Of a DNA stretch of 64,000 nt, positions 5,540 to 56,287 are shown piece after piece; within the stretch, counting starts at the first letter, position 1, and the number at the start of each line of letters is the position of its first letter. Source of the stretch: Rhizophagus irregularis (lineage: Eukaryota); contig NC_089429.1 of the NCBI RefSeq assembly GCF_026210795.1, positions 4,030,001 through 4,094,000 of the forward strand, read 5' to 3'. The translations under genes were made by a program, and so were the position numbers. The notes beneath the pieces were generated by a model, which saw only the letters and a list, made by a program, of their open reading frames with translations, was not told the DNA's origin and did not search any database.

Positions 5540-7338
5540 AGTCTGCCTCCTATACTGTTTGCCGTCGTGCATAGTGTGTTATAGGAAAAGGCGGACTTGA
5601 ATTATATAGGTGTAAGCTTATGTTATATAGGCGTAAAGCTTATATAATTAACGCAATGAAAATCCTTTAATCAAAGGTTAAAATAGGCATGATGGGATAT
5701 TCTCATATATCATGAGCTCTGTCTGTTCGAAGTGTCGTTTTATATATAATTAAGTAGGCTTAAGTTGTAAGTAACTTTTTTATAACATTGATTATTGGAG
5801 AATGGAGAATTAAGTGGCAAAAATAATTTTTAGTTTGTAAGACTTTAACTCCATACCAACTTGTGTGTGTTTGGCGTATATTTTATTCCCTAACCCTTAG
5901 ACCCACTCGTGGGTTGGTAGGTTGCTTTGCACTTCTTGCAGCCTATCTTTAATGGGTTTTAGGTCCACGTTTGCCCATTTAAAATTTATTAAACAGGATG
6001 TCATTCGTCTAAACACATTGCAACGTTTGTTGATGAAGCTATAATTGTCTAATAAAAGTTCGCTTTGCCAGGCAATTTATGGTGGATTCAATGGATCAAA
6101 TTACAAACAACAATAATGCAGTCATATGAGAATTCCAGGCCAAAGAATAAGGGTGAATTGTCAAAGTTGAAAATATATTTGTATTTTTTTTTTAAAGCCG
6201 TCATTCTCATGAACTTTTTCATTGTATCCCTAAGTTCAATGATTTTGGTAATAATGAAACTGCAGTTGTTTACAGGGGTTTCCCGCCAAACTTCTGAGGT
6301 GAATTTATGTCTGGTGTTTTCGAATCTACTTATCCTTTTTGCAATAGAGTCATAGCGAGTCTTCTTAAAGCGTACCTGTGACATCCCATCCAATTTGGGC
6401 AGTGTCGCTGAATCTAAAGCAAGGTACCCGGTTAATCCTCAACTTTGGGTTGATGAGTTATGATTCTGGAGTATTAAGGCATAATGTTTTGACTTACATT
6501 ACCAATTTAACTCATAATTCTAATTTATTGAATTAGTTTATTATAGATTTATTGATATTTTTTTTTATCTGTTATATAATATTTAAACTAATGTATACTT
6601 TATCTGTAATTAAAATTGTTATTGTAATAAATAATCGGTAACTTAAATCTATTGAAATTAACTTTTAAATTAGATTACAAATTATTAAAATATTATAAAA
6701 TTGAATTTAACGATATTTGATTGATTTGATATTTTTAAAGGTAAATTCAATATTTATAGATAATATCATTTTGATATTATTTTGATACTGAATTAATATT
6801 AAAATAATATTATATTGATATTGCATTTATTAAAAAAAAATCATTATTGTTATAACAATATCAAAATGATATCGTTTCGTTATATCAAAACGATATCATA
6901 TTAATATCGTATTTACTTTCTATTTTTCATTATTGTTATAACAATATCGAAATATCGAAATGATATCGATTTGATGTTTCGTCAATATCGTTATGATGTC
7001 GATTAGATAATTATAAAGTGATATCTTTACAATATCATATTGATATTGAATTAATGTTGGAACGATATCATATTAATATCATATTTACTTTCTATTTTTC
7101 ATTATTGTTATAACAATATCGAAATGATATCGATTTGATGTTTCGTCAATATCGTTATGATGTCGATTAGATAATTATAAAGTGATATCTTTACGATATC
7201 ATATTGATATTGAATTAATGTTGGAACGATATCATATTAATATCGTATTTACTTTCTATTTTTCATTATTGTTATAACAATATCGAAATGATATCAATTT
7301 GATGTTTCGTCAATATCGTTATGATGTCGATTAGATAA
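5540..7338 (-). repeat. Inverted copy of ~12170-13961 (arm of a sibling DNA transposon), including a 164-bp GATATC-rich tandem array
   Basis: 5540 agtctgcctcctata... is the reverse complement of ...tataggaggcagact 13961; mirrored ORFs 6088-6393(-) and 13115-13420(+). Confidence 0.9.
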
Positions 7339-8742: not shown

Positions 8743-9647
8743 GAAAAATGTCTTAATTCCTAAAATTAGTGACGAGAATCATGTGATATAGATTATCAAA
8801 TTGATAATTTTTTTTTTTCCAACGAAGTTTCACCTTTTCCATTTTTTCTTCACCGAATTTCTTATAAGCTTATTTATCAGGATTTACATTACATTTCCTT
8901 TTCCCATTTTCCTTCCCTTCGTTTTCTTTTTTTTGTTCTTTTTTTTATTCTCTCCATTTCCATTTCCTTCATTCTTTTTCTTCTTCAAATTCGTTCTTTC
9001 CTCTTTTTCATCCTTCCCCACTTCTGTTTAAAAAAAAAGTTAAAATCACCTACAAAAAAAATCCAAAATTCTTTTTTTAGATGGTTATTTCGGTCTCCCC
9101 GGACACAACATTTCCGGTAAACTATTTTTTTCTTCAATTATATTTATTTTAACAAGCTAGTTTCTAATGGCTCATTTTTTTAATTTTTTTTAGACGGTTT
9201 TGTTCTTTTTTTGTATATTTAGATGCGTGGAAATTCAGTTTCATTTTTTCTTTTTTTAAACAGTTCTTTAGTTTCTTTTGACATGTAAGTTTTCGGTATA
9301 TTTTTTTTTATTTTCCTTAATTTAACTACTCTGACGAACTGTTATTAACAGTTCACTTTTTTTTCTTTTTTAGGGCTCTTCAAATTTTTGTCACATTTCT
9401 TTAGGAATTCGGTAAGTCTTAATTTTTTTTACTAAATTTTTTATTTTTAACGAACTATACTAATAGTTCATTTCTTTTTCTTTTTTAGGCAGATCTTTCT
9501 AGTTTCTGGAGTTTAGATGGCTTGGATTTGAGTACTTGAATTTGGTAAGAGAGGGGCTATTTTTTATAATTCTTTAATGAAATGTTTACTAACGTTTCAT
9601 TTATCTTTCTCTTTTTAGACAGCTTCTTTTTCTTCAAGTCTTTATAC

Positions 9648-9890
9648 TAAGGTTGCTTGTTTAAACCTCTTCAAAATCCTACGATTAGTTTCATCAAAAT
9701 TTTACTATAGATTTATTATAGTTTCGGCAGAGTTTCAGCAGTTTTGGCATTTATAATAAGTTTTGGCAGTTTCGCCTTTCTCCAAAGTTTCACCAGTTTT
9801 TAATATAACTTTAATATAGTTTCGGCAGAATTTCGCTTTTCGGGAAAACGCCATCTTGCCTAAACCCCTAGGTTTTGGCAAGCAACCTTA
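9648..9890 (+). mobile_element. hAT-type MITE (TAAGGTTGCTTG family), copy 1
   Basis: TIR taaggttgcttg/caagcaacctta; 8-bp TSD ctttatac. Confidence 0.92.
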
Positions 9891-10934
9891 CTTTATACGC
9901 GCAGATTATGGTATATATATTTTTTTTTTGTTTTTTAAACATTTTTATTATAACGAAATGTTAACCTAACAATTTCATTTTTTTATTTTTTTAGGCAGGT
10001 CTTCGGCTCTTTGGACATGACATTTCAGTAAGTAATTTTTTTCTTTTATTTATTTTAACGAAACGTTTATTAACATTTTGTCTTATTTCTTTTTTTTTAG
10101 TCAGCTTCTTTAAAACTTCTTTGACGTGGATTCGTAAGTTTTTTTCTTTTTTTTCTTTTATTTATTTTAACAAAACGTTTACTAACGTTTCATTATTTTT
10201 CTTTTTTTAGACGGATCTTGGATTCTGGTAAGAAACCAGAAGAAAATTTTTTAATTTTATTATTTAATGAACCATCTTTAATGTTTCGTTATCTTCCTTT
10301 TTTAGACAGCTTGCTCTTCAGACTTGGATGGCATGCATTATTTGAATGAAATCATTTTGTTACAATCTGTGACTAAAAATGATGAAAATCAAGATGGGAT
10401 AATAGAAAACGCATTGGATTAGGTGAGCTATTTTTTCGCTATTATTTGTTTTAACGAAACGAATGAAATGTATTCTAATGTTTCATTCTTTCTTTTTTTA
10501 GATGGACCTGGACATGTGAGATTTCGGTAATTGTTTTTCTTTAAAATTTTTTTTTAACAAAACGTTTGCTAACATTTTGGTTTCTCTTTTTTCTTTTTTT
10601 TTAGGCAACTGGTTCTCTGGTTCTCTATCGGGAATTTTAATAAAGATATGGATAATAATAAACATAATAATACACTTGAAAGTGAAAAACAGGTCCATCC
10701 TACTTCTCGTACTTCATCTAATAGTAATACATCAAATAAATAGATAGCTACATTGATTCCAATGGGTTTTTTTTTTATTTTTATGAAACGTTTATTAATG
10801 TTTCATTATTTTTTTTTTAAACGGAACTTGGATTCTGATTCTCCAGGTCTGAACACGTTGGATTTAGGTACTTCTACTTCAGTAAGTATTGGAGTTTCTT
10901 TGATTTATTTCTTTAATGAAACGTCTTACTAACG

Positions 10935-11313: not shown

Positions 11314-11879
11314 TACTAACGTTTGATTTTTATCTTTTTTTTTCTTGATGACCAGATGACCAGATCTTTGAAAGCATAGAATTTTGGTAAGAGGAATCTG
11401 AAGTATTTTTTTTTGAATATATTTCCTAGTTTTATTTATTTAATTTCATTCTCTTTTTTATTAGATAACCTGGTCTCCAGATGCATGAAAATTCGTTAAA
11501 GAATTGGAAATCTTTTAATTTTAAATGGCAGGGAGGGTCTTTGGAAGTATTGAAAATTTTAATTAGTTGTAATATTATATGTAATATAACAGGACAATAT
11601 GTATATATATAATAATAAAATTGAGTAGTAAAATAATAATAAATATCAATATTAAAATAGCGTAATATACTATTATTTATTATATAGTAATTAATTTCTT
11701 TACAGAAACCTTGAATTTTTAAACAATACCGAATTGATATAATAATGATGTTAAATAAATATCGTGGCGATATCGATTTGCAAATGATATCATTATGATA
11801 TCGCAATGATATCATTTCAATATTAATTCAATATATCGAAATGATATCGTAAAGATATTTGTTTGAAAAAATATCAGAT

Positions 11880-12660
11880 CAATATCATTTCGATATTGTT
11901 ATAACAACAATGAATTTTTTGAAAAATGGGAAGTAAATACGATATTAATATGATATCATTCCAACATTAATTCAATATCAATATGATATCGTAAAGATAT
12001 CACTTTATAATTATCTAATCGACATCATAACGATATTGACGAAACATCAAATTGATATCATTTCGATATTGTTATAACAATAATGAAAAATAGAAAGTAA
12101 ATACGATATTAATATAATATCGTTCCAACATTAATTCAATATCAATATGATATCGTAAAGATATCACTTTATAATTATCTAATCGACATCATAACGATAT
12201 TGACGAAACATCAAATCGATATCATTTCGATATTGTTATAACAATAATGAAAAATAGAAAGTAAATACGATATTAATATGATATCGTTCTAACATTAATT
12301 CAATATCAATATGATATCGTAAAGATATCACTTTATAATTATCTAATCGACATCATAACGATATTGACGAAACATCAAATTGATATCATTTCGATATTGT
12401 TATAACAATAATGAAAAATAGAAAGTAAATACGATATTAATATGATATCGTTCCAACATTAATTCAATATCAATATGATATCGTAAAGATATCACTTTAT
12501 AATTATCTAATCGACATCATAACGATATTGACGAAACATCAAATCGATATCATTTCGATATTGTTATAACAATAATGAAAAATAGAAAGTAAATACGATA
12601 TTAATATGATATCGTTTTGATATAACGAAACGATATCATTTTGATATTGTTATAACAATA
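11880..12660. repeat. Tandem array of 164-bp GATATC-rich units (~4.5 copies)
   Basis: Repeated tatcatttcgatattgttataacaataatgaaaaatagaaagtaaatacg... unit. Confidence 0.9.
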
Positions 12661-18075: not shown

Positions 18076-21000
18076 AATAAAATCAAATTATTACGCCTAC
18101 AATCTATGAACACAAGAATTAATGAAATATTAATGAAGATGAAAGAATTAATAAAACGAAGAATTATATTAATGAAAACGAAAGAATTAATGAAACAAAA
18201 GAATTTTGTAAAAAGAGTGGGAAAATAAAAAAAATCTGTGTAAAAAAAAAATCCTTGTAAAAAAATAAAATCAAATTATTATGCCTACAATCTATGAACA
18301 CAATAAGAAATTGCAATGATGTAGAATAAATAGTTTAAACAAATTTGTTAAACAAATTTGGATAAGCCATGGGTATGCCGCGGATATGTCGCGGGTGTGT
18401 CACGGGTGTGTCGCAGTGTCTTTATGGTAAATTAAAGCATTTACCGTGGGTGAGTTGCGGGTCAATTTGAGGACTTACTATGGAATAATAAAGATGTTTT
18501 TATACACGTAATTATCTTCTATGGTGGTTGATTTAGAGGTTCAATCAGAGAAGTTTTACCACAACATTTATTTTATTTTGACAATGACTTAAAATTAATG
18601 AAAATTAATTAACGAAAATTAATTTAATTGGTCTGCTAATAACAATCATGGTGTTTAACGAATTCGCTTCATTAGTTTTGATGTTCGAAAAATATAATCG
18701 TAAATTAAATATATAATCGTAAATTAATAAATCATACTTTATCTATTATTTTATTAAATCGTAAACTTTAATACTCTACTACTAAATTAACTAAATTATT
18801 GTTTCGCAAGAGCATTTTCTATTTATTAAGTATAATTTTCAACCACTATTTTTTATAATCCTGCATATGAATTTACAGGTCAAAAACTTCGCAATTCAAT
18901 TAGTTTAATTTTCGAGTTTTTTGACGCATTCGTGAGATTTAAGCAAGTATGAAATAAATTTTTTTTATACTAATTGAATTTTTATGTATTGATTAACGAT
19001 AAAAAAAGCATGTACTACTTGATTTTGTATACGATTGTGTTCCAAAACTTGACGATTGTGTTACTTTTAAAACTCCAATGTGCTACTTGATTTTGTATAC
19101 GATTGTGTTCCAAAACTTGATGATTGTGTTACTTTCAAAACTCCAATCAGAATCTATAGCAAATCGGTAATAATTTTAACTGAATTGATTTTGGTTTTTT
19201 TGTCGATACGCTAAACAATATAAAAGGTATTAAGGTATTTAATAAATAATTTTTATAAAGATTTATTGAATTTTATAAAAATTCTAAATTAAGTTAAGGA
19301 TTTAAATTGTCAAAGGATGAGAAGACGATATAGTCACAATAAACCAATAGAGCCAATTTGAATTCGAAATCGGTTTTCTTACAGCAAACCTAATGAGACA
19401 ACAGATTCTGACGAGAGAGTTGCAATTCGTTCGCCTGTACGTTCACCTGATAATGATAACGATGATATGGACTTTCAGTATGATCATAAAGATGATTTAA
19501 GTTTTCAAGACATTAATGATGACGATAATGCATATGGATCAATTAATCCTCAAGACTACAATGATGAGATGATATTTTCGCAAGATAATGTCAATTCATC
19601 TGATACTGAAGAGGAAGAAGAAAGTGATAACGAATACAATTATGAAGAGGAGGAAGAGGAAGAAGATAATAATGAAAACAATGACGAAGAGGAGGAAGAG
19701 GAAGGTAATAATGATGATAATAATAATCAAGTGGAAGAGGAACGTAATAACGATGAAGAGGAACGTAATAATGAAGAAGAAGAAATAGATCAAATTGTTG
19801 AAGCGTTAGATGAAGACAAGATACCGTTCTGCAATAGTGAGTTTGCACTATACTTTAATAATTATACAACTACGGCATTATTTTGCTGGCTTCAGAAGCA
19901 TAATGTTTCTACAAAAGCATATGAAGATCTTGTCGATATCATTCACAATTCTCAATTTGAACCTACCCATATGGTAAAAATATCCGAAGATTCCAATCAT
20001 GGAGAAAACGTCTTCCTCTCCTACCAATAATAACAAAGTCTATTAAAATTTCACTAAAAAAAACTCCATCAACCTCACGAGGATCAAAACTTTCGTATCA
20101 ACTCTCAATCAGTGAAATTATATGGCGTGTTCTTAATAATCCGATGCTAATGAAGCATATGTATTTTGGACCCGGCATTAATTCTGAAGAAAAATCAGAA
20201 TTTTGGCATGGAAATTTATGGGGGGAATCCCCACTTTTTGGACAATACGAAATATTAATATCAGAAGGTTATAAAATAATACACTTTGATACAATTATAA
20301 TTTATTATCATTGATAATATTTATTAAAGTTATTTTTAATAAATAGTATTGTACCGATCTGGTGATTTTGTTTACTATCATGATGATAATGGTCAAAAAA
20401 AACTTGGAAGATTAAGATCAATTTTAAAAAATGATGATGGATATTATTAGTTATGAATTCAAAAAATTTTGGAATATAGAGATTTACCCAGAAATTTAAA
20501 AGGGTTACCAAGACAACGTCGTTCTATTACCGGTGAAGTATGGTTACAAGACGAACCATTTTTAATTATAATGACTTCTCAAATTTTAGAAAAAGTAACT
20601 ATATTGATGATGTTTCAACATCAAAATATTCCTGATGGTTCATTACGGATTAGTGAAATAATTTATAAATGTAATGACCGTTGGCACGTTCGTAATGTAA
20701 AGCTTTCATACCTACATCCATCTGATTACATTTCTATCAGAAATCCACCATCATCATCTATGCCAATCTATAAGCTGTTTTTAGATCTTTATTATGATGA
20801 TTTTGGTATATTTAGAAATGTATACCATTCTCTAGGTGGTGTTTATGTACAGTTTGGAAATATGCCAGCACATCAAAGAAAGCTAATAAAGAATCATTTT
20901 GTTATTGGGTTTATCCCATTTGGAGGAAAATTTGACGAATTTATGATACCATTTATTTCAGAAATGAAGGAATTAGAGAAAGGAAAGGTGATGACTGTCC

Positions 21001-24000
21001 AAGGACAAGATGCATGGATAATTGCTGGTTTAGGCGTTGTTACGGCAGATTTACCTCAAGGTAACGATTTGACAGGAGTATTAAGGTATTTTTTCAATTT
21101 AATTAATAATATAATAATATAATTTTATGACAACTATTAAAATTGTTTAAAAAATAAATTTAGACATAATGCAAATAAGGGTTGTCGTACTTGTAAAACT
21201 ACTAAAGAATCATTGAGTGCTCACAATCAGGATATCGTAACAATATTACGTTATCATCATATTACAGACGAAGAAATCTTAAAAATTTCTCATAAGACTA
21301 TAATGTCAAGAAGAGATCAACTTTGTACGGAATATGGTTTACGATCATTACCTAGTATTTTAGATAAATTAAAAAGGGAAAGACATTTACAGACGCCGCA
21401 GGATGTTTATCATGCGACTGCAGGAAAGATTGGGCGACTACTAAAATTAACTTGTGAATTATTTTCACGAGAAGGAGAAGATAATTTTATCGAAATTTGG
21501 AAAAATTTTGAAATCCCAAAAAGATGGTCTCACTTACCAAATCCGATTACTCACTACAATAGTTTTATGATGTCGGATTTACTTAGATTAGCTATGATTA
21601 TGCCATTTTTGTTAAACCAGTTTTTAAAAGAATCAAGTATCAAACGTAATGAAACAGCCATGATTCAACAAAGAATTGATGCATTTCGAGTTAGTTCAGT
21701 TCTAAAAATTATTATATCTTGTTGGATACATGTTGCAAAAACTATGAAAGCGGTTTTTAACAAGAAATTTACATCAGATAGCTATGAGGAATTGCAACAA
21801 TGTCTTGAAGAAGAGTTTTCAATCCTTCCAAAGGTATAGTTACAAATTTGATATTGAAATATGGAATAATTTCAAATAATTAACAATATTTTACTTTTTA
21901 TAGGTTTTTATAAATTTTGTTAATTTACCAAATATACACGTTAATATGCATCTTTTGATGCATGCTAAAACCTTTGGAACACTTATTAATACCCAAGTTG
22001 GTATAAAAGAAATGGTCCATCGTATTCAAAAACATAGATTTAGATTTATTAAAGCGTTACAATACTTTATTTGCAATTCGACATTTAGCAGATGGTGGTA
22101 TTGATCCAAGATTTAATAGATCTCGTACTCACTGGTCGAAATCAAAAAAATCGGATATATGGAAAATCGGCCAAAAATCAGACCAAAATTGGCTAACATT
22201 ATAAATCGGCACATCTGATTGATGCCAATCAGACAATTCGATAAAAATTCAGCAAAAAATCATCATATTTGATTAACGGCTGATTGATGCTAGTTGAAAT
22301 CAAAAAAAAAAATGGACAAATGGCAAATCAACCTAAAATTTGTCCGATATTCAAATATGATACTTCAGATTTATGAAAAATTGACAATTCAATAAAAATT
22401 CAATAAAAATTCAACAAAAATTTGGCAAAAAATCATTATATTTGATTGATGGCTGATTGATGCTGGTTGAAATCAAAAAAAAAATTGGACAAAATGGCAA
22501 ATCAACCTAAAATTTACCCAATATTCAAATATGATACTTCAGATTTATGAAAAATTGACAATTCAATAAAAATTCAATAAAAATTCAACAAAAATTCGGC
22601 AAAAAAATCATCATATTTGATTGACGGCTGATTGATGCTGGTTGAAATCAAAAAAAAAATCGGACAAAATGGCAAATCAACCTAAAATTTACCTAATATT
22701 CAAATATGATACTTCAGGAAAATTGACAATTCAATAAAAATTTGATAAAAATTTGATAAAAATTCGGCAAAAAAATCATCATATTTGATTGACGGCTGAT
22801 TGATGCTGGTTGAAATCAAAAAAAAAATTGGACAAAATGGCAAATCAACCTAAAATTTACCCAATATTCAAATATGATACTTCAGATTTATGAAAAATTG
22901 ACAATTCAATAAAAATTCAATAAAAATTCAACAAAAATTCGGCAAAAAAATCATCATATTTGATTGACGGCTGATTGATGCTGGTTGAAATCAAAAAAAA
23001 AATTGGACAAAATGGCAAATCAACCTAAAATTTACCTAATATTCAAATATGATACTTCAGGAAAATTGACAATTCAATAAAAATTTGATAAAAATTTGAT
23101 AAAAATTCGGCAAAAAAATCATCATATTTGATTGATGGCTGATTGATGCTGGTTGAAATCAAAAAAAAAATCGGACAAAATGGCAAATCAACCTAAAATT
23201 TACCCAATATTCAAATATGATACTTCAGATTTATGAAAAATTGACAATTCAATAAAAATTCAATAAAAATTTGATAAAAATTCGGCAAAAAAATCATCAT
23301 ATTTGATTGACGGCTGATTGATGTTAGTTAAAAATCAAAAAAAATCAGACAAATGGCAAATCAGCCTAAAATTTGCCCAATATTGGTTAAAATTACAAAT
23401 TGGCACTTCTGATTTGTGGCATACTGGTTAATGATTTATGGTTGAATCTTTTCATATTATTGATATATGTAATTTATGATAAATAATAAATATTCAGTTA
23501 TCCTCATTAAAAATTGCATGAACGGTCCCTAATATTATTGTTGGATGATTTAAACTATATAATAGTTTAAATCATAATCTGTCACCTGATTTATTCAATA
23601 GTTAGAAATTTGCTCATTTTTCAATTGGGTATCAATCAAAATTAAACTATTATAATATTTACTATTTGTTGATCAATTATAATAAGATGCGACGCGTATT
23701 GTATTAAAAGTATAATTAGTATAATTTTAGCTTTAAGATTAATTTAAGATTACAACCTTTTAACCTTTTTTTTCCTCAAAACAAAATATTTCTCTTTTAT
23801 TGCTCTATGGTTCAAATTGGGAATTGATAAAAGAATCTCAATTTTTTCCGATTTAATAAATATCAGTATGCCAGTATTGAAGAAAAAAAATTTTTTTTAT
23901 TCCAGCATTCCGATTTACTGTAATGAAATGAAATAATAAAAATATATTTTTTTTTATTATTTTTAATATTATTTGCAGGTTCCGGCATTCCGATTTAATA

Positions 24001-24764: not shown

Positions 24765-25039
24765 CACTGGTAAAAAAATGATTTATTCTACACATATCTT
24801 ACACATATTGGGTACTTAAAATGTAGAAAATCATACACAAATAATACACATATCATACACATATCGGTACTAATATATATATCATACATATATCAGGTAC
24901 CTGATAGGTATACTATATATATAAGTACCCGATATGTGTATGATATGTGTATTATTTGTGTATGATTTTCTACATTTTGAGTACCCGATATATGTAAGAT
25001 ATGTGTAGGATATGTGTAGGATAGACCATTTTTTTTACC
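24765..25039 (-). mobile_element. CACTG MITE, reverse copy of 62868-63146, right TIR clipped
   Basis: cactggtaaaaaaatg...cattttttttacc with probable TGC duplication; internal tacacatatc repeats. Confidence 0.8.
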
Positions 25040-25429
25040 TGCGCTGGACTCCATTTTGAAGGTATAAACCTTCGATCGAAAAAATAAAGACGAAAAAAAA
25101 ATTTGGGAGAGGGATAAAGAGAAAAATCGGGTTGAAAAAAGAAACCGAAAAGGAAAAAGAAAAAAAGGATAAAAAAAAAGCCAGCGCAATGGAGTTTTTG
25201 GTCCAGCACCCAATAACGATCACCCAAATTTTCCCAAATTAATGGAACCGCCAAAGAAAAAAATTTTCTATTTTGATAAAGACAATTTAATAATCAAGGA
25301 GTATCAAGGTGCGAAACTTCTATTAATTCTGTTAGAAGTGTTAAAATTTCTGTTATATTTGACATGATGTAAGAAAGAAGGAGATTCCAATTCTTTAACT
25401 TTCTTTAAATTTAGGGAAAAAAAAAATTT

Positions 25430-28619: not shown

Positions 28620-28863
28620 TAAGGTTGCTTGTCTAAACCTCTTCAAAATCCTACGATTAGTTTCGTCAAAATTTTACTATAGATTTATTATAGTTTCGGC
28701 AGAGTTTCAGCAGTTTCGGCATTTATAATAAGTTTCAGCAGTTTCGCCTTTCTCCAAAGTTTCGCCAGTTTTTTAATATAACTTTAATATAGTTTCAGCA
28801 GAATTTCGCTTTTCGGCGAAACGCCATCTTGCATAAACCCCTAGGTTTTGGCAAGCAACCTTA
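28620..28863 (+). mobile_element. hAT-type MITE (TAAGGTTGCTTG family), copy 2, inside a transposase exon
   Basis: Same sequence as 9648-9890; TSD ggtatctt/ggtatcct. Confidence 0.9.
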
Positions 28864-32316: not shown

Positions 32317-33414
32317 TGTAAACGGTCAAATATCAAGCACGAAAAGATGATAAAATTCAACCACCAAATGTAATTATTAAATATTAAGAACGAACAAATT
32401 AATCGTGGATTGGCGAAGATGGATAAATAATTAGCCGAAAAGGATAAACATTTAGGAAGAGTAATGATCTACATGATGTAATATTTATTGAATGATTGAC
32501 AAGGAACCAATAGGATAAATAGAGTCGATCAATTGCGGCTTAGCAATCTTTAACAATAAGAACGATAAGAAAGAATAATTATAAGCCACAAAAGATAGAT
32601 TATAAGCAAAACACATAAAGCGAATTAAAAGAACATATAAAATAATGTCAGAAAGATTAAAGAACACAAAATAATGTAAAAGATAATATAAAAAGATAGT
32701 ATAAAGATGGAACGTAAAAGATAATATATTAAAAAGAACATATATAAAAAGATAGCATATTAAAAGATAGCATATTAAAAGATAGCGTATTTAAAATATA
32801 GATAGTATATTAGAAAGATAGTTCAAAGATAATATGTAAAAAGAACATAAAAGATAGTATATAGATAGAATAGAAAGTAGCATAAAAATTGTATATATAG
32901 AGAGCGGAATTCAAGGTAATTCCTTAGTTCTCATCCACAGAACTCAATAAAAATATAAGTTTTATTTTTTTAATTATTTGTTAGTAAAGTTTAATGTTAA
33001 TTAAAGGTAATAGGTTCGCCCTAAACTTTAATTAATGTTTGCTTAATTAATTTTAATTGAATAAATGGAAATTTTAAGGTGAATTAAATATATGTTTTTG
33101 AAAAGTAATAATTCGTAGCGAGAGCTATCGAAGTTTGAAATTAAAGGTAAAAGTGGATATAATTTGGGGAAAATTTAGAGAAGTTAATTTTATTTTATAT
33201 CGTTCAACGTTTTATATTACTAACGCTATTTATGTCGTGAACCAAGAATGTTGTTGTTATATGTTGTTGTATGTTGTTTGTTAATTATATCGTTGACTAT
33301 TTGCTTGTTCGTTTAATTGTTCGTTCGTTCGTTCATTCGTTCGTTTGACCATGAGAATGCCCGTTCGATGTGGCAACTCTGTAAATTGATGACAGAGGGA
33401 ATTGGGGGATCTCA
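32317..33414 (+). repeat. 5' LTR
   Basis: tgtaaacggtc...gggggatctca; direct repeat of 42575-43672. Confidence 0.97.
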
Positions 33415-42574: not shown

Positions 42575-43672
42575 TGTAAACGGTCAAATATCAAGCACGA
42601 AAAGATGATAAAATTCAACCACCAAATGTAATTATTAAATATTAAGAACGAACAAATTAATCGTGGATTGGCGAAGATGGATAAATAATTAGCCGAAAAG
42701 GATAAACATTTAGGAAGAGTAATGATCTACATGATGTAATATTTATTGAATGATTGACAAGGAACCAATAGGATAAATAGAGTCGATCAATTGCGGCTTA
42801 GCAATCTTTAACAATAAGAACGATAAGAAAGAATAATTATAAGCCACAAAAGATAGATTATAAGCAAAACACATAAAGCGAATTAAAAGAACATATAAAA
42901 TAATGTCAGAAAGATTAAAGAACACAAAATAATGTAAAAGATAATATAAAAAGATAGTATAAAGATGGAACGTAAAAGATAATATATTAAAAAGAACATA
43001 TATAAAAAGATAGCATATTAAAAGATAGCATATTAAAAGATAGCGTATTTAAAATATAGATAGTATATTAGAAAGATAGTTCAAAGATAATATGTAAAAA
43101 GAACATAAAAGATAGTATATAGATAGAATAGAAAGTAGCATAAAAATTGTATATATAGAGAGCGGAATTCAAGGTAATTCCTTAGTTCTCATCCACAGAA
43201 CTCAATAAAAATATAAGTTTTATTTTTTTAATTATTTGTTAGTAAAGTTTAATGTTAATTAAAGGTAATAGGTTCGCCCTAAACTTTAATTAATGTTTGC
43301 TTAATTAATTTTAATTGAATAAATGGAAATTTTAAGGTGAATTAAATATATGTTTTTGAAAAGTAATAATTCGTAGCGAGAGCTATCGAAGTTTGAAATT
43401 AAAGGTAAAAGTGGATATAATTTGGGGAAAATTTAGAGAAGTTAATTTTATTTTATATCGTTCAACGTTTTATATTACTAACGCTATTTATGTCGTGAAC
43501 CAAGAATGTTGTTGTTATATGTTGTTGTATGTTGTTTGTTAATTATATCGTTGACTATTTGCTTGTTCGTTTAATTGTTCGTTCGTTCGTTCATTCGTTC
43601 GTTTGACCATGAGAATGCCCGTTCGATGTGGCAACTCTGTAAATTGATGACAGAGGGAATTGGGGGATCTCA
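42575..43672 (+). repeat. 3' LTR
   Basis: Same length as the 5' LTR and no differences noticed by eye; followed by CCGG. Confidence 0.97.
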
Positions 43673-48461: not shown

Positions 48462-48705
48462 TAAGGTTGCTTGCCGAAACCTAGGGGTTTAGGCAAGATG
48501 GCGTTTCGCCGAAAAGCGAAATTCTGCCAAAACTATATTAAAGTTATATTAAAAAACTGGCGAAACTTTGGAGAATGGCAAAACTGCCAAAACTTATTAT
48601 AAATGCCGAAACTGCCAAAACTCTGCCGAAACTATAATAAATCTATAGTAAAATTTTGACGAAACTAATCGTAGGATTTTGAAGAGGTTTAGACAAGCAA
48701 CCTTA
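48462..48705 (-). mobile_element. hAT-type MITE (TAAGGTTGCTTG family), copy 3
   Basis: Reverse complement of 9648-9890; 8-bp TSD cacattat. Confidence 0.93.
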
Positions 48706-51350
48706 CACATTATTATTGAAGATCAACCGTATGACCGAAAAAATTATGTAATCTTTATAAATATTTATAATAAAAAGAATTCTATTTAAATCAAATCTAG
48801 AGTCTGGATCCGTTCATCCACTCCAAGTTTTGTACTCCAAAGTCACGTGAATGGCTGCGTAGATAGTATATACTTTAATGTTTGATGCTTATCCATTTTT
48901 TTACGCATAACGGAACTCCTTTTTGGTTCCGCCAAAATTTTTGCCTACAATAGGTAACAGATGCGATGAAAATATGAATGACCAGTCCATTATGAAGGAA
49001 GAAATAGTGTTTAGTTCGGGTTGACAACATAGACAAAAATATTACATGATCTATTTTCAGCCAATCCTTTGGCCAAATTCAATTAACGTTAACGACTTCA
49101 AGTTATTCAGTGGGACTGCCTGTGGAATATTTATGCATTTCCATTTCTGATTAATGCGAAACTGCCTTTACTAATGACGTTCATCATATTTTACAAGATT
49201 AGACAAAAATAATATTCGTACATGAATATTGTGGAATTGATAGGATTCACAAAAGTTTTTCTTATTTGTAACGGTTACCAGTAATTGTACTATTTCCATG
49301 GAAGTGCATAAGTACTTACCCATATGGCTTTAGCCTGAACTCAACCACATTTTTTTATTTATTCGTGAGACTTGTAACTTCTACAAAAGTAGATTAAAAA
49401 ATGAAATACATGTAAAAAACTGTCTTAGGGCGCACTTATGGTAGCTTCGCTAGTTCTCAATAGTGTAACAAGATGTAACGATTGATCCCATTTTGTTGGA
49501 AAAAATATACAATCTCGAACTTTCCAAGTGTAAACGTACATGTTTATGCAGAGAAAACTAGTTGACATATGTTATATAACAAAAGTATCATACTAATTAT
49601 GGACTTACTATATAAGCGATATTATGTGCTGCACTTACAATAGTTTCACTACGTAGTTCCATATCCTCTATCTGAGCTATGTTCATTGCCATAGATAAAA
49701 AATTCTACGAGTTTTTACTTTGTATCCCGCTTAGACATGCTGTTGTTTTGTTTATTTTACTGAAGAAATTCGCTAAAGGGCACCAAAGCCAAATAGACAA
49801 AACAATTATAATGGAAAAAACATGCACGAAAAGCTTTCGAGTTATTGATGGCAACTGATCCATACTGTTATGGGATGAAAACTTTTAATTATATCGCAAG
49901 TATATCTACTGTCTTACATGATAACAACTCTGATTAAGGGTACTGAATTTCGTTACCGTTTTTCTGAACAAAGAAATAAAAACAACATTACCACATGATT
50001 TCTAAACACTCATGGGACTTCTAATATGTAAAAAATATGCTCATTGTTATCTGACAAACTATTTTAACTACATATTGTCCGCTGTGATGAATGTGATCTG
50101 TGTTTTATGAGTTACTACTGCGAGTTGAATATTAGTGGACAACTGTTACTTACTGCGAAAACACATGATACTCTACACTGACCGTCTTGCCCTATTCTCT
50201 GGGAAAATTATCACATTAGATGTTTCATGACCAACGATGTAACTACTCAAGTATACTACACCTTAGAACTGACTCATCTATTCTATATAGATTTGTATGA
50301 AATAATATTAGTGCTAAATTTGTGTAGCGAATCCTTTCAGATTTTCATTTTGTTACACAACCCCCTACTTTCACAAGGTCTATTTATGGACTAGTTTTCT
50401 CCTAGGACTACTGTAACTATGTACTGTTGTTATGTTTCCAAACATTCCCGAGAACATATCCTTAAAACCTGTTTCTTTGGAAAACGATTATTTATTCCAA
50501 CAGTGCAGAATTTGTTTTTTGTAACGATACAGAACACATTTGTTGTAATTTGTTAGTAACAGTGGGCTATGTATTTTTGTAATGATGAAATATATCATTG
50601 AAATCTGTTGGTAACGATAATGTTCTGTTTGTGGCAGTAATCTTCTGGTAACTACGGTATATATTTGGACGATGCCCCCTGTATAAATTTCTTCATTACG
50701 CTTACCTCTTTAACTCTTTATTTTCATGGAATGGACCAAAGGCTTCTTTGTTCCTCACTCTTTAGCGCCTTATAGGGAAAATCATGGAAGTCATTGCCTG
50801 TTACTAGTTCGTATGTATTTTTTTTGTCGATGACGTATCGTTACTGTATATTGTTGTGATCTGTTAGCTGAAGAGCATTTCCTTTAGAAATGAACAATAG
50901 TTACAAGTTCGTATATATTTTTGAATGGCTGAGTATATTTGGTCTGTATATATTTTTGTAACGATGAAGTATATATGGTGGTGATCAGTCAGAGACTGCT
51001 CAAAAAGCAAAATTATTTGGAATGACGAATGTGAAAAAATGGCTATATTAGACGGTTTTTGCCTTTTTCTTTTTCCAAAAAATTATGCTCACCACTGTAT
51101 ATTGTATTGCTGCAGTCTGTTGGTAACGATAGTATATATTTGTTACGAGTTCGTATATATTTTTTGTTTGGTAATGATAATGAACGTATATGTTTATTAC
51201 AAGTTTGTTACATTTTTGTAACGATGAACGTATTTGTTATAGATACTATTGATAACAGTAACGTATATTTTATTTTTTGAACAATGAGGTATGCATTTTG
51301 CTACATCACCCATTGGGTGTCCAATAACATAACAATAATGTACTGAATAT

Positions 51351-53798
51351 CATCAGGAAGTCACGGGAAAAATGTTCATCAAATGTACATCGGTCACTTG
51401 ATGTACATCATAAAGAAACGCTAAACATCGGACCCTGCAATGTACTACCAATGTCACAATATTCGATGTGCATCACCTAATTTTAATGTCCATTAACGAT
51501 GTACATTATTTAAAGATAATAAACATCATATTAAATTTATAATATTATTGAATTTATTTTATTAAATACACTATAACAATAATATTAGCTAAATTTTTCT
51601 ATTATTAAAAGTAACAACTGTTAAAGAAAATGAAAAAAAGACAGTAGGCTTCGCAACGAAACTTACAATCTTTATATTAATTAACTAAATACTCCGGGAC
51701 CTACAAAAAAAGGTTTGAAGTTCAGTTATTCTTCGAAACTTGTCCAAGAAGTACAACCTAACAATAAAAAGATAAAAAAAGTATTAATAAAAAAATTAAT
51801 TTAAAAAAAAATTTTAAAAAAAGTTTCGAAGTAAAACTTCAAAACTTACTAATCCGTTCTGTTAAGATTTGTATATACTTACAAATCTTGATCTTCTTGT
51901 TTTATTCTTCGGAAATTCACCCGAGACCTAAAAAAAAGAAAAAGAACGGTTAGTAACCGTTCCATAATATTTAAAAAAAACAATAAACAAACCATGATTC
52001 GTACTCACGAATCTTGGTTCCACTTTATCCGAAGATTGGAGGCCCACCCGAAACCTAAAAAATAAAACAAAAAGAACGGTTAGAACCGTTCATAGTATTA
52101 AAAAAAAATAAATCTAAGGTTCGTAATATAATACTTACGAACCTTAGTTCTCCTTTTTCTGATCTTCGGAAATCCACCTGATCCTCTAAAAAAAAGAAAG
52201 AAAGAACGGTTAATAAACCGTTCGTAATATTAAAAAAATCCTAAACTAAGTTCGTAGTAAAATACTTACTAACCTCAGTTTATTATTTTCCGTTCTTCGA
52301 AAGACCACCAGATCCTATAAAAAAAAATAAAAGAAAAGAACGGTTAGTAACCGTTCGTAATATTAAAAAAAATAAAAAAAAACCCCAAAAGATTCGTACT
52401 AGTACCAACGAATCTTTAGGTTTTTCCATTCTTCTGAGACACTGAACCTATAAAAATAAAAAAAGGAACGGTTAGTAAACCGTTCCATAATAATAAAAAA
52501 ATAAATAAAAATCAAGATTCTTACGAATCTTGGTTCCCCGTTCGTCAGAAGCCCACCAAACCTATAAAAGAAAAAAAGGAACGGTTAGTAAACCGTTCCA
52601 TAAAATAAAAAAAATACCAAGATTCTTACGAATCTTGGTTTCCGTTCGTCGGAAGCTCACCGAACCTATGAAAAAAAAGAAAGGAACGGTTAGTAAACCG
52701 TTCCATAAAATTAAAAATAAAAAAAAGATTCGTACTTAGTACCGTTACGAATCTTTGGTCTTCCGTTCTTCGGAACTCGGAAGCCCACCCGAACCTAAAC
52801 AAAAAAAAAGAATGGTTATTAGTAACCGTTCGTAATAATAAATAATAAAAAATAAAAATAAAAAACCAAGATTCGTACGTACTTACGAATCTTGGTTTCT
52901 CCTTTTCCGAAAATTGGAAGTCCATCCGAAATCTAAAAAGAAAAGAACGGTTATTAGTAACTGTTTCAAAATAATAAAAAAAAAACAAATAAAACCAAGA
53001 TTCTTACGATCTTTGTTCAAGTCCCCATCCTCCAATCCCCCCTTCCCAGTTTTTTACCTCAAAGTCCAGTTTCGTATTCAAGCCGGCGTCCTCGTTCTAC
53101 AAAAAAAAAATAATGAAAGAAACGTTAGTAGTTCGTTTCTTAAAATAAAATAACAAAAATCTCCCCTCCTTTCCCATTTCTCACTACCTAAAGTCCGGTT
53201 TCGTAGTATTCAAGCCGGCGTCCTCCTAGTGCGCGTCCTACAAAAAAATAACAATAAGAAATGTTAAGTTGTTTCTTAAATTAAAAAAAAAGAAAATTAA
53301 AAAAAAATAAATTAAAAAAAATATGTAAGTTTCGAAATGAAACTTACATTACTTTCAAGAAAAAGAGGCGTGAGAAAAGGGGGAAGGGAAGGACGAAAGG
53401 GAGGGAGGGACAAAAGGAAAGGAAAGGAAGATAAGGGAAGGGAAGGGGGGAAAGGAAGGACGATAGGGGAAGGATGAAAAATGAAAAGTTTAAAAAAAGA
53501 TGATGATGATCCTTTTTTAAACTTTTAATATGCGTAACGCGTGATGTTTTAATTAGTGCACTATTTCAGTTGACCAATGTCTAATCGTAGATCATGACTA
53601 GTGCGCTAATATAAAAAATTATAAATTTGATAAATATTGAATTATCATTATTTAATGCTGCACATCATGATAAAAATCTCATTGATGATGCTCATTAATG
53701 TTAAATATTACATGTTCATTTAAAATAATGAATATTATAATATACATGATCTACAAAAATGTACATGTAATAAACATTTTTCCTGTAACTTCCTGATG
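51351..53798. mobile_element. Non-autonomous CMC-like element with CATCAGGAAGT termini, carrying a minus-strand mini-intron array
   Basis: TIR catcaggaagtcacgggaaaaatgtt / aacatttttcctgtaacttcctgatg; AT or ATAT duplicated on the flanks. Confidence 0.85.
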
Positions 53799-54674
53799 AT
53801 ATTACGAGCTTAAAGTATATCTTTTGTAGTGATGAAGTATATGTTGTTGCATGGCCACTGGTAACAATTTCTGTACATATTTTTTTGTAACAGTGATGTG
53901 TATATTAGTTACGGTCTGTATATTTTTTTTTGTAATAAGGTTGATATATTTTTTTCGTAATGATGGATGTATTTTCTTTGTTGCATTGCATATAGTTGGG
54001 TAATGAAGTTTGATTTTATCTTTGTTTCATAAATGTATTTTTTGTAACAGAATATGTGTCGTTGTAACTAAGAATTGTGCCACATAGCCAGGTAAAACAC
54101 GTTCATGCTAATATCCGGTTTATGTCATCTACTTCGTATCATCTGAGTAAAAACCTCTGCTTATATTCTGTATTACTTTCGCCTCTTTGAGGGATACGTA
54201 GCACTTAGAAATGTAGCGCTGATGCATATCTATCGATTTGAACAGGGGTTATCATATAAAAAAGATATGGTCGAATACTTTTATTCTGTAACAGATGAAA
54301 AACAATCCTTGAATGCTGGTGTACATGAAAATAAAAATTATCATTTTAAACATAAGCCCCTATATAAAAAAGAAATGGCTGAGTTTGATTTTTACACTCC
54401 TACTGCCAAAGAACAGGAGATGATCGACCAATATCTTGCAAGGACAGACGCTGAGTACCATGCCAGGAATCGTGCTAATATAGATTCATCTGTGAAAGGT
54501 TTAACGCTGAACTCGTAGAGAAATACGGTGCCGAGAACCTTAAGCCTGAAGACTTTCTTGTCATTTCCGAAGAGGGTTATCACGATGGTTTGTTCGAAAA
54601 ATATTTCAGAGCATGTATTGACAGAGTCGAAAATAAATTCCAAAATAAACAAATTCATATCAATCAAGAGTCTG

Positions 54675-55088: not shown

Positions 55089-56287
55089 TAAAGCTCTGAA
55101 CGGTTCGGGCTAAACCGGGGAACCGATCCAAAACCGGCTCAAAATTCGGTTAGGTTCGGTTCGGGTATTAGAACCGAAAAACTGGCGGTTCGGTTCGGTT
55201 TAATCCAATTTTTTATAAAAATGCGAAAAATCGAATAGCCGGCCATCTAGTGATCGTACAAAGTCCAACCATATATCATTGGATTCGTCTCGACGAGACG
55301 CGTCGAATGGTAGTAAGATCATGTCTCTAGCATCGATAGATCACACGTTAACTCACGCTAAATGATTTATAAATAATTGGAATTAGCAAGTTATCTATCG
55401 GTGCTAGAGACATGATCTTAGCACCATTCGACGCGTCTCAGTGAGACGAATCCAATGAATATAAATTCGTCCGTGTACGACCACTGGATGGCGAATAATA
55501 TCAAGTTTCGCATTTTTTTAAAATTTTTGAGCGTTAAAAATTAAAAATTCCGATACATGAATTTATTCGTCGTCCAATGGTCGTACAAATATAAATTAGG
55601 ACTCATTGGATTCGTCTCGATGAGACGAGTCGAATGGTGGTAAGATCATGTCTCTAGCATTAATAGATCGTATTTTAATTCACGCTAAATGATTTATAAA
55701 AAATTGGCATTAGCAAGCTATCTATCGATGCTAGAGACGTGATCTTACCACCATTCGACTCGTCTCATCGAGACGAATCCAATGAGTCCTAATTTATATT
55801 TGTACGACCATTGGACGACGAATAAATTCATGTATCGGAATTTTTAATTTTTAACGCTCAAAAATTTTAAAAAAATGCGAAACTTGATATTATTCGCCAT
55901 CCAGTGGTCGTACACAGACGAATTTATATTCATTGGATTCGTCTCACTGAGACGCGTCGAATGGTGCTAAGATCATGTCTCTAGCACCGATAGATAGCTT
56001 GTTAATTCCAATTATTTATAAATCATTTAGCGTAGGCTAACGTGTGATCTATCGATGCTAGAGATATGATCTTACCACCATTCGACGCGTTTCGTCGAGA
56101 CGAATCCAATGATATATGGCTCGACTTTGTACGATCACTAGATGACCAGCTATTCGATTTTTCGCATTTTTATAAAAATCGGATTAAACCGAACTGAACC
56201 GCCAGTTTTTCGGTTCAGTTCTTACGGATTTCGGCTCTAATCCGAACCATCTATAATCTGGACCAAACCGACCCATTCGGAGCTTTA
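55089..56287. mobile_element. hAT-type foldback element with long internal palindrome
   Basis: TIR taaagctctgaa/ttcggagcttta; 8-bp TSD cttctaac; arms ~55170-55670 and ~55720-56215 are reverse complements. Confidence 0.92.

Follow-up and report, generated by a model that had tools for sequence, protein, structure and literature searches.

A hairpin-rich mini-exon/intron array transcribed within a non-autonomous DNA transposon of Rhizophagus irregularis

Rhizophagus irregularis is a model arbuscular-mycorrhizal fungus. In a 64,000-nucleotide (nt) stretch of its contig NC_089429.1 (positions 4,030,001 to 4,094,000; hereafter the window, with positions counted from its first letter), a 2,458-bp element at 51,346-53,803, bounded by 45-nt inverted repeats, contains on its minus strand a CT-rich leader followed by a tandem array of mini-exons and short introns, most of whose 5' splice sites (donors) and branch sites lie in short perfect hairpins. 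The exons are numbered E1 to E11 and the introns I0 to I11 in the direction of transcription, I0 being the leader intron. RNA was found to be transcribed from the array on its minus strand and to be spliced at least in part, a finding that is supported at the level of the family. It was also concluded that the hairpin arms and the splice signals are both constrained, while the evidence leaves undecided whether the arms act at the level of RNA or of DNA.

RNA, hairpins and carrier of the array

Three polyA RNA-seq runs (X19, X20 and X21), carrying the same species label and coming from a related strain, were used as raw reads, and a run with DNA-like contigs (X1) served as the comparison for depth and junctions. 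RNA depth was 10-60 over 51,889-53,340, tapered to 1-8 at 51,526-51,888 (1-2.5 in 51,526-51,646) and to 2-3 at 53,341-53,461, and was about zero at 51,163-51,525 and 53,462-53,824 (about 0.1-0.5 in 53,462-53,582). The interval covered by RNA coincides with that from the leader to the poly(A) signal. In the DNA-like contigs of X1, these RNA-free flanks are present in many copies (depth 73-231), so that DNA carry-over does not explain the signal.

One joint, 52,185^52,274, skips exactly the 88 nt of the predicted intron I8; it reads CT..AC on the plus strand and hence GT..AG on the minus strand, and it was seen in 6, 8 and 5 reads of X19, X20 and X21 (19 in total) and in none of X1. At the predicted acceptor of I0, loose ends at 53,239 were found in 90, 66 and 58 reads per run (214 in total, agreement 0.99-1.0). 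These reads run upstream into '...gcttgaaacgaaactggacttta' ('...actggacttta'), the 3' end of an E2-type exon, and since GTA follows that exon end in the DNA of a related metagenome locus (L002), they were taken as exon-exon junctions of an expressed paralogue. Among the 15 of 107 joints listed, an exact junction was thus seen for one of the ten introns between regular exons (I8), next to the I0-acceptor reads from paralogues, and the best-supported junctions sit at donors that have an imperfect hairpin or none at all. The latter is suggestive, though not proof, of inhibition of splicing by the stems. Transcription is borne out by the polyA coverage from the leader to the poly(A) signal, and the minus strand, which the original prediction had assumed, by the GT..AG junction; the splicing that it had foreseen stands for the exact I8 junction and the exon-exon reads at the I0 acceptor, and is qualified by many unspliced reads and a seemingly unstranded library, which are weighed below.

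Perfect donor hairpins with a stem of at least 7 bp were found at 9 of the 12 donors (I0, I3-I7 and I9-I11). Their stems are 7-15 bp long and form between the last nucleotides of the exon and the first of the intron, as in aaaccaagattcgta-AGTACG-tacgaatcttggttt at 52,898-52,863. Branch sites lie in perfect hairpins of 7-9 bp in 9 of 12 cases (I0, I1 and I4-I10), e.g., ggaacggtt-TACT-aaccgttcc. All the motifs quoted when hairpins were originally proposed for donors and branch points are present on the minus strand where they had been placed: accaagattc-GTAA-gaatcttggt at 52,639-52,616, caagattc-GTAA-gaatcttg at 52,532-52,513, gattcgt-GAGT-acgaatc at 52,013-51,996, and gaacggtt-ACT-aaccgttc at 52,356-52,338 and 51,962-51,944. 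When hairpins were counted with a stem of at least 7, at least two G/C per arm and a loop of 3-12, 17 perfect ones were obtained in 51,860-53,350, against 0.58 +/- 0.70 expected (maximum 3) from 200 dinucleotide shuffles; as the units are tandem duplicates and their hairpins are inherited together, the 17 are not independent events. The predicted stability of the stems as RNA is -8.4 to -19.5 kcal/mol.

Several known classes of structured RNA were considered and set aside. A mirtron or pre-miRNA (precursor microRNA) would require at least about 20 bp of stem over most of the intron's length, whereas the stems here are local and 7-16 bp long. Rfam gave no match at the gathering score in the whole window, and the nine weak rows obtained at E up to 1 (L20 leader, preQ1-II and miRNA precursors), all far below gathering, were dismissed as chance. 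Small nucleolar RNA and tRNA-like readings were likewise left without support, there being no Rfam match at the gathering score and the stems being too short. As a side observation, GTAAGTA (the donor consensus) is nearly the reverse complement of TACTAAC (the branch consensus), and the opposite strand of each branch-site hairpin reads GTTAGTA, which is donor-like.

The array was read on the minus strand from 53,495 to 51,560. Upstream of it, a block at 53,500..53,600 (catgatctacgattagacattggtc ... tcacgcgttacgc ... aaaagtttaaaaaaggatcatc), compared by eye, is conserved with the metagenome locus L006 and is predicted to be the promoter region. Within it, tcacgcgttacgc with its ACGCGT core and the palindrome aaaagtttaaaaaagg...ctttttttaaactt are found at 53,532-53,544 (minus) and in L006 at about 1,010-1,025 (minus), in both cases just before the CT-rich leader, and make up a candidate promoter element. 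The leader (53,375..53,495) is 121 nt long and RNA coverage begins there; with 91.7% pyrimidine, it matches the pyrimidine-rich leader originally noted. The leader intron I0 (53,238..53,347) has its donor GTAAGT in the hairpin atgtaagtttc/gaaacttacat, its branch site ACTTAAC in the loop of taagaaa/tttctta and its acceptor AG at 53,239-53,238. It is followed by E1 (53,188..53,237, 50 nt), I1 (53,097..53,187, 91 nt), in which the donor GTAGTG is without a hairpin and the branch site TACTAAC lies in the loop of aagaaacg/cgtttctt, E2 (53,058..53,096, 39 nt) and I2 (52,933..53,057, 125 nt), with an imperfect branch-site hairpin.

In the core units E3/I3 to E7/I7 (52,315..52,932; exons 52,932-52,887, 52,794-52,749, 52,665-52,630, 52,561-52,525 and 52,447-52,410), every donor lies in a (c)caagattc.../...gaatcttg(g) palindrome and every branch site in (g)gaacggtt/aaccgttc(c). 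E8 (52,274..52,314, 41 nt) precedes I8 (52,186..52,273, 88 nt, GTTAGT...TAG), the sole intron with an exact splice junction in the RNA. The units E9/I9, E10/I10 and E11 (51,883..52,185; exons 52,185-52,139, 52,054-52,009 and 51,927-51,883) include donor stems with the compensatory variants ctaaggttcgtaa/ttacgaaccttag and aagatttgta/tacaaatctt. The 3' part (51,564..51,882) is less regular, with I11 (51,882-51,758) followed by terminal exons and introns that are predicted only, and its counterpart in L002 has a different intron pattern. An AATAAA at 51,558..51,563, where RNA depth drops, is the predicted poly(A) signal. The 11 regular exons measure 36-50 nt (GC 0.46) and the ten introns between them 68-125 nt (GC 0.21-0.32), with a T fraction of 0.40-0.56 and the form GT...YAG in all ten; Tandem Repeats Finder reported periods of 105-137 nt over 51,906-52,994. 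Together with the leader intron and the irregular 3' part, this accords with the earlier count of ten or more units on this strand. In its anatomy the array is a Pol II transcription unit with many short introns of the consensus kind, whose GT...AG termini and branch sites followed by a pyrimidine tract and an acceptor are as expected of U2-type spliceosomal introns.

The inverted repeats that bound the carrier lie at 51,346..51,390 (plus) and 53,759..53,803 (minus) and are 89% complementary, and their core CATCAGGAAGTYACRGGAAAAATGTT occurs in the window at these two ends only (0 expected). AATAT precedes both ends, so that target-site duplications of TA, AT and ATAT are indistinguishable. No open reading frame (ORF) was listed within 51,346-53,803. 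The predicted spliced product has no long ORF and is stopped in all three frames, and the exons, at 36-50 nt, do not come in multiples of three; a coding potential of the array was therefore rejected. From the ORF-less interior and the inverted repeats that bracket it, the array was recognised as the interior of a non-autonomous DNA transposon. Next to the left end, on its inner side, at 51,382..51,507 (plus), there are four copies of a subterminal GATGTACATC-like motif (four of the five matches in the window), which differs from the palindromes of the array.

The class of the carrier is a separate matter. It had originally been labelled CMC-type (CACTA/EnSpm/Plavaka), a label that is unproven for this element. 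The inverted repeat reads (AATAT)CATCAGGAAGT... at both ends and starts (AATAT)CATCAGG, not the CACTA or CACTG terminus of that group, and the carrier, being ORF-less, holds no CMC-type DDE transposase. As to a short (2-4 bp) target duplication, TA, AT and ATAT are all compatible with the ends.

Conservation of the units and explanations of the palindromes

A scan of metagenomes with the branch-site palindrome as the pattern returned seven loci. Four of them (L001, L002, L003 and L006) are AT-rich soil contigs 70-76% identical to the array, while L004, L005 and L007 (GC 0.47-0.52) showed no resemblance to the window and were discarded as chance hits. In L006, the upstream block, the CT-rich leader and the hairpin-bearing leader intron are all retained, and L002 is truncated at the 5' end. 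L003 was scanned for an intron-bearing host gene as a control and none was clear. It was also seen that L006 carries, at about 1,150-1,260 (minus) upstream of its leader, two copies of gaaacattagtacgtttc whose other strand gives hairpins of the branch-site type (gaaacgTACTAATgtttc), which hints at a divergently oriented second array.

Units of 104-144 nt were cut at the 3' arm of the branch-site hairpin, and 23 complete ones (8 from the window and 15 from the four loci) were aligned over 167 columns with a mean identity of 63%. Pairwise identity was 1.00 for the final YAG, 0.96 for each of the branch-site arms, 0.81 for the 5' splice site, 0.79 for the 3' arm and 0.71 for the 5' arm of the donor hairpin, 0.68 for the AT spacer and 0.62 for the exon body; 15 of the 21 invariant columns fall within the branch-site hairpin or the final AG. 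GT was found at the aligned donor column in 19 of the 23 units, 14 times as GTAAGT. Three units have no GT in the donor hairpin, namely L001 unit 2 (a loop deletion with the arms kept), L002 unit 7 (ATAAGG) and L003 unit 1 (an inverted loop with TACTTAC instead of GTAAGTA, located at about 720-750, minus), and the rearranged L006 unit 3, with a GTAC loop, has its GT off the aligned column. All 23 units have a branch motif of the form YTAAY, either TACTAAC or a near variant (TACTAAT, TATTAAC, TCTAAC). Downstream of all 28 branch-site hairpins of the window and the four loci, a pyrimidine run and YAG come within about 30 nt, an ending that the cutting pattern itself required, and no unit within any of the arrays is without a branch-site hairpin.

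The donor and branch-site helices gave standard pairs in 88.3% of 496 cells, against 25-47% when the partner was slid by 1-3 columns. Compensatory changes on both sides were found at seven pairs and in 19 cells, and none of 500 shuffles matched either the cell count or the covariation score, so that the covariation expected of the 23 units is present. Pair 54-78 reads AU 17, GC 4 and UA 2 times with zero unpaired cells, and pair 50-82 reads CG 10, AU 5 and UA 3 times. Several of these cells trace back to a single change passed on to orthologous units, so that the number of independent compensatory events was estimated at about five or six. The branch-site stem is nearly constant in the family of this array (one compensated change, two U·G, one G·U and two C·A cells) and differs between arrays: gaacggtt/aaccgttc here is replaced by gaaacgtt/aacgtttc in an array at 25.4-26.4 kb, by aaaacgtt(aa)/(tt)aacgtttt in another at 26.5-27.3 kb, by gaactgtt/aacagttc and gaactat/atagttc at 9.3-9.5 kb, and by aagaaacg/cgtttctt and taagaaa/tttctta in the first two introns of the carrier itself. 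The claim that the stem differs from that of the 25-kb array and stays paired was thus confirmed. An extended complementarity of the left branch-site arm to the conserved sequence of U2 small nuclear RNA, which would fit gaacggt fairly well and not gaaacgt, is put forward as an idea only.

The explanation that we prefer, and to which about an even chance is given, is that the array forms the transcribed inner part of a 2.46-kb transposon without ORFs and yields a polyadenylated non-coding RNA, the palindromes of which fold in the pre-RNA and gate the access of the spliceosome. The module would have arisen by tandem duplication of one exon-plus-intron unit, and the CT-rich leader would start a polyadenylated non-coding RNA of about a dozen mini-exons with short GT-AG introns, some of them spliced. 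The stems may act on the RNA by slowing the binding of U1 and U2, which would give a mix of spliced and unspliced reads. A possible pay-off is an intron-dependent licensing, whereby a transcript resembling that of a spliced host gene would be less prone to the silencing directed at transposon RNA that lacks introns or is spliced poorly, and the element might stay open for mobilisation in trans. This licensing function is proposed by analogy only, with the general principle that introns protect mobile elements from silencing, as given in the available part of one report (PMC8770142). An RNA function shared by the separate arrays, as the original prediction suggested, is likewise conjectural.

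A number of observations weigh against this reading, the first group of them from the RNA. Intron sequence adjoins the exon in 26-71 reads per run at 52,935, 52,900 and 52,613, so that many reads are unspliced, and no exact junction was seen at an intron with a perfect donor hairpin among the 15 of 107 joints listed. Most reads are only 90-95% alike (866 of 1,227 in X19) and hence derive from paralogues in another strain, not from this locus. First mates are equal on both strands, in the array region as well as at 24.4-27.5 kb; the library therefore looks unstranded, and it is the GT..AG junction alone that sets the strand. Over the arrays at 25.4-27.3 kb, RNA depth stays within 0-15 and is highest at poly-T stretches; none of the 15 of 33 joints listed for 24.4-27.5 kb is a canonical junction, and array expression there is not convincing. 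As the loci were fetched and the units were cut by the branch-site hairpin, its conservation is somewhat inflated.

The second group concerns the stems. A transition in a stem is a priori as likely to leave G·U as A·C, and of the two only G·U is tolerated in an RNA helix. The core stems hold 383 Watson-Crick, 5 G·U, 9 A·C and 11 other cells, and the other arrays 378 Watson-Crick, 5 G·U and 9 A·C cells; the excess of G·U over A·C that marks a structured RNA is thus not seen in these small numbers. As there is no strand-specific tolerance, the compensatory pattern alone is no proof of selection on RNA folding, and it fits strand-symmetric DNA palindromes at least as well. Of the earlier proposal that compensatory change reflects selection on RNA structure, the co-variation of the stems held up; selection on RNA structure itself was not supported, G·U not exceeding A·C (5 v 9 in this family and 5 v 9 in the other arrays). 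There are also events of a DNA type at the palindromes, in the form of the loop deletion with arms kept (L001 unit 2) and the loop inversion (L003 unit 1).

The abundance of unspliced reads also bears on a different account, in which the hairpins stall spliceosomes and the stalled complexes feed RNA interference (RNAi), the array being a liability or a source of small RNA. The original SCANR work in Cryptococcus reportedly showed that stalled spliceosomes feed RNAi. Such complexes as an RNAi signal in Cryptococcus are also described in the accessible portion of PMC6643885, and the 5' splice site and the branch site of the array are both sequestered in stable predicted stems. A harmful feature should decay, yet the hairpins are the best-conserved part of the unit, and the RNA is present in polyA libraries at moderate depth; the account is considered very unlikely.

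The DNA-type events and the lack of a wobble excess speak for a neutral satellite. In this explanation, an exon-plus-intron piece was captured from a transposon leader or a host gene and amplified by unequal exchange, the palindromes were kept perfect by template switching within quasi-palindromes and not by selection, and both transcription and splicing are functionless by-products. Quasi-palindrome correction is a known mutational mechanism. The head-to-tail units of 104-144 nt, the stems of nearly pure Watson-Crick pairs with no preference for G·U, and the deletion and inversion of loops are as expected of it, and so is pair 54-78, in which double changes occur without single-mismatch intermediates, as one-step templated correction would give. 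The donor is moreover lost in 3 of 23 units (no GT in the hairpin), with the GT off the column in a fourth (L006 unit 3). The pattern of conservation points the other way, in that it is uneven (branch-site arms 0.96 and YAG 1.00, against 0.62 for the exon and 0.68 for the spacer) across copies that are 24-30% diverged and come from different metagenomes. Templated repair preserves complementarity, not sequence, and both branch-site arms contain a CpG, yet they are nearly invariant. Sense splice signals are kept in the loops (19 of 23 donors and all 23 YTAAY branch motifs), though a flip of the loop would be neutral for a DNA palindrome, and a second CT-rich leader is followed by an array of the same design with different stems. 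On balance, a neutral satellite is possible, if rather unlikely.

The same symmetry might be explained if the palindromes were docking sites on DNA for a dimeric protein of the transposon or of the host, acting in mobilisation, chromatin or replication, with the splice signals merely in the spacers. Perfect, strand-symmetric inverted half-sites with short spacers occur several times per unit, there is no wobble excess, and GAACGGTT/AACCGTTC is invariant at the level of sequence. The AACGG and AACTG half-sites presumably resemble the Myb core YAACKG, a partial fit that was counted in favour of docking; the AACGTT arms of the 25-kb array do not fit that core. Heat-shock elements, too, would fit the half-sites in part only. 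The subterminal GATGTACATC motif of the carrier is unrelated to the palindromes, which argues against these as binding sites for its transposase. Docking gives no account of the pyrimidine run and YAG that follow 28 of 28 branch-site palindromes (with the ending required by the cutting pattern), nor of the one-way GTAAGT and TACTAAC loops and the contrast in composition between exons and introns, and it was judged improbable. The loops retain the splice signals of the sense strand, to the orientation of which a DNA palindrome is indifferent.

An extension of the preferred explanation, gating of the spliceosome by stems in the pre-RNA, is regarded as doubtful. According to it, DNA transposons of arbuscular-mycorrhiza-type fungi would carry self-amplifying 'intron cassettes', mini-exon/intron modules with the 5' splice site and the branch site each held in a palindrome that co-evolves. 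Through these the RNA of the element would engage the spliceosome many times, slowly and under control, an adaptation that might let a gene-less element pass as a spliced host gene or tune stalling to escape defence. The cassettes would then form an undescribed class of cis-regulatory RNA module common to several transposon families.

Other arrays and mobile elements in the window

The window is AT-rich (GC mostly 25-33%), dense in eukaryotic mobile elements and present in soil metagenome runs. A further array at about 9.08-10.62 kb (plus) lies behind its own CT-rich leader (8.84-9.02 kb) and consists of about ten short GT-AG introns with diverged mini-exons. Branch-site hairpins are found in five of its introns (gaactgtt/aacagttc, gaactat/atagttc and aaacgtt/aacgttt), i.e., 5 against 0.43 expected, and its donors are mostly unstructured. 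This array (8,840-10,640, plus) is contained in an element whose boundaries are formed by inverted arrays of 164-bp repeats (6,889-7,338 and 11,869-12,616). One of its introns contains a copy of a 244-bp repeat that is present three times in the window (9,648-9,890, 28,620-28,863 and 48,462-48,705; 95-96% identical) and is probably a small mobile element.

In the arrays at 25.4-26.4 and 26.5-27.3 kb, 13 and 9 hairpins were counted, against about 0.5 expected. These arrays lie 1.7 kb downstream of ORFs that a protein atlas ties weakly to Transposase_21 and Plavaka and that have no significant Pfam match. The poly-T peaks at 24.4-27.5 kb are made up of loose ends and of 'opposite strand' joints whose sides measure 20-22 nt, and the stronger coverage at 24.6-25.4 kb is that of a paralogue diverging at 25,409. 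At 24,766-25,040, a mini-exon is interrupted by a palindromic insertion resembling a miniature inverted-repeat transposable element (84-nt arms, 95% complementary). RNA reads and a DNA-like contig of the relative join 24,758/24,761 to 25,042, which shows that other copies have an empty site.

The transposase-like ORFs mentioned above lie at 19,362-22,100 (plus), belong to another element and not to the carrier at 51,346-53,803, and are split by plain introns. For these ORFs, Pfam gave no significant match and the atlas gave leads only, to Transposase_21 (27% of cluster members) and Plavaka (13%). Their three coding introns (at about 20.27-20.34, 21.09-21.16 and 21.84-21.90 kb) have no hairpin at the donor or the branch site, and the hairpin scan likewise found none there; as far as this small sample of ordinary coding introns goes, such hairpins are not a general feature of introns, which agrees with the original prediction.

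Of the remaining elements, a Gypsy retrotransposon at 34.9-42.4 kb encodes gag, reverse transcriptase (RT)/RNase H and integrase, and its RT is nearest to a Mucoromycota cluster in the protein atlas, which was taken as a lead. Identical short tandem repeats at 32,715-32,822 and 42,973-43,080 mark the two long terminal repeats of this element. An RT with an endonuclease, similar to that of long interspersed nuclear elements, lies at 43.5-47.8 kb, with further fragments elsewhere in the window. A large palindrome of about 1 kb at 55,171-56,216 is made of 327-bp repeats and is 93.7% identical to its own reverse complement.

Significance and comparison with known systems

If the palindromes act on RNA, the array would be a natural, many-fold repeated experiment on how local structure controls the access of the spliceosome to the 5' splice site and the branch site, in a non-autonomous transposon that invests in splicing instead of in protein. 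It would join two questions, namely how mobile elements evade or provoke a defence coupled to splicing and how families of introns multiply, and would offer a way into the large share of unclassified repeats in mycorrhizal-type fungal genomes. Should the palindromes act on DNA or be neutral, the array would be a clean case of compensatory-looking change without selection on RNA, and a caution for the discovery of RNAs by covariation.

Literature searches, with supplements outside their scope, returned no published description of such mini-exon/intron arrays. Maize En/Spm (CACTA) transposons produce a multi-exonic transcript with a non-coding first exon, and their dSpm derivatives keep working splice sites and subterminal repeat motifs. 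The carrier resembles them as a DNA transposon with a multi-exonic non-coding transcript and subterminal motifs, and a CMC-like transposase gene (a lead only) is present in the same window. It differs in that its interior is composed of tandem, near-identical mini-exon/intron units with no coding exons and with the splice signals in palindromes; its inverted repeat is not CACTA/CACTG and no transposase is linked to it.

In tau exon 10 and SMN2 exon 7, a local stem-loop covers the 5' splice site and limits the access of U1. The donor hairpins of the array share the stem over the 5' splice site, and the same mechanism is predicted for them. The tau and SMN2 stems are weak and occur at single sites in host genes, whereas up to 16 bp of perfect pairing, about ten repeats and a second stem at the branch site are found here.

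The HUSH pathway (PMC8770142) and RNAi in Cryptococcus (PMC6643885), in the parts of these sources available, silence mobile elements that are intronless or poorly spliced, which provides a logic by which dense introns could matter to a transposon. Their hosts are human cells and a basidiomycete yeast, and no intron array borne by a transposon is described in those parts. In the part of a curated survey of Rhizophagus irregularis transposons that was accessible (PMC11075540), the word 'intron' occurs 0 times.

Multiplying families of introns have been reported elsewhere. Introners, introner-like elements and the internally symmetrical (stw)introns of Hypoxylaceae (PMC8469720, PMC12130899) are such families of highly similar short spliceosomal introns; some have inverted repeats able to form double-stranded RNA, and some are transposon-borne. 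They are dispersed over protein-coding genes, each insertion bringing one intron, and it is the two intron ends that their inverted repeats join. In contrast, the introns described here multiply in tandem with a mini-exon inside a transposon and carry two separate local hairpins, of which the donor hairpin spans the exon/intron border and the other encloses the branch site. Near-identical introns standing singly in unrelated genes, as in introners, were not seen, all copies in the window and in the metagenome loci being tandem and in repeat elements. The closest published kinds are the spliced transcripts of En/Spm-type transposons and the proliferating internally symmetrical introns (PMC8469720).

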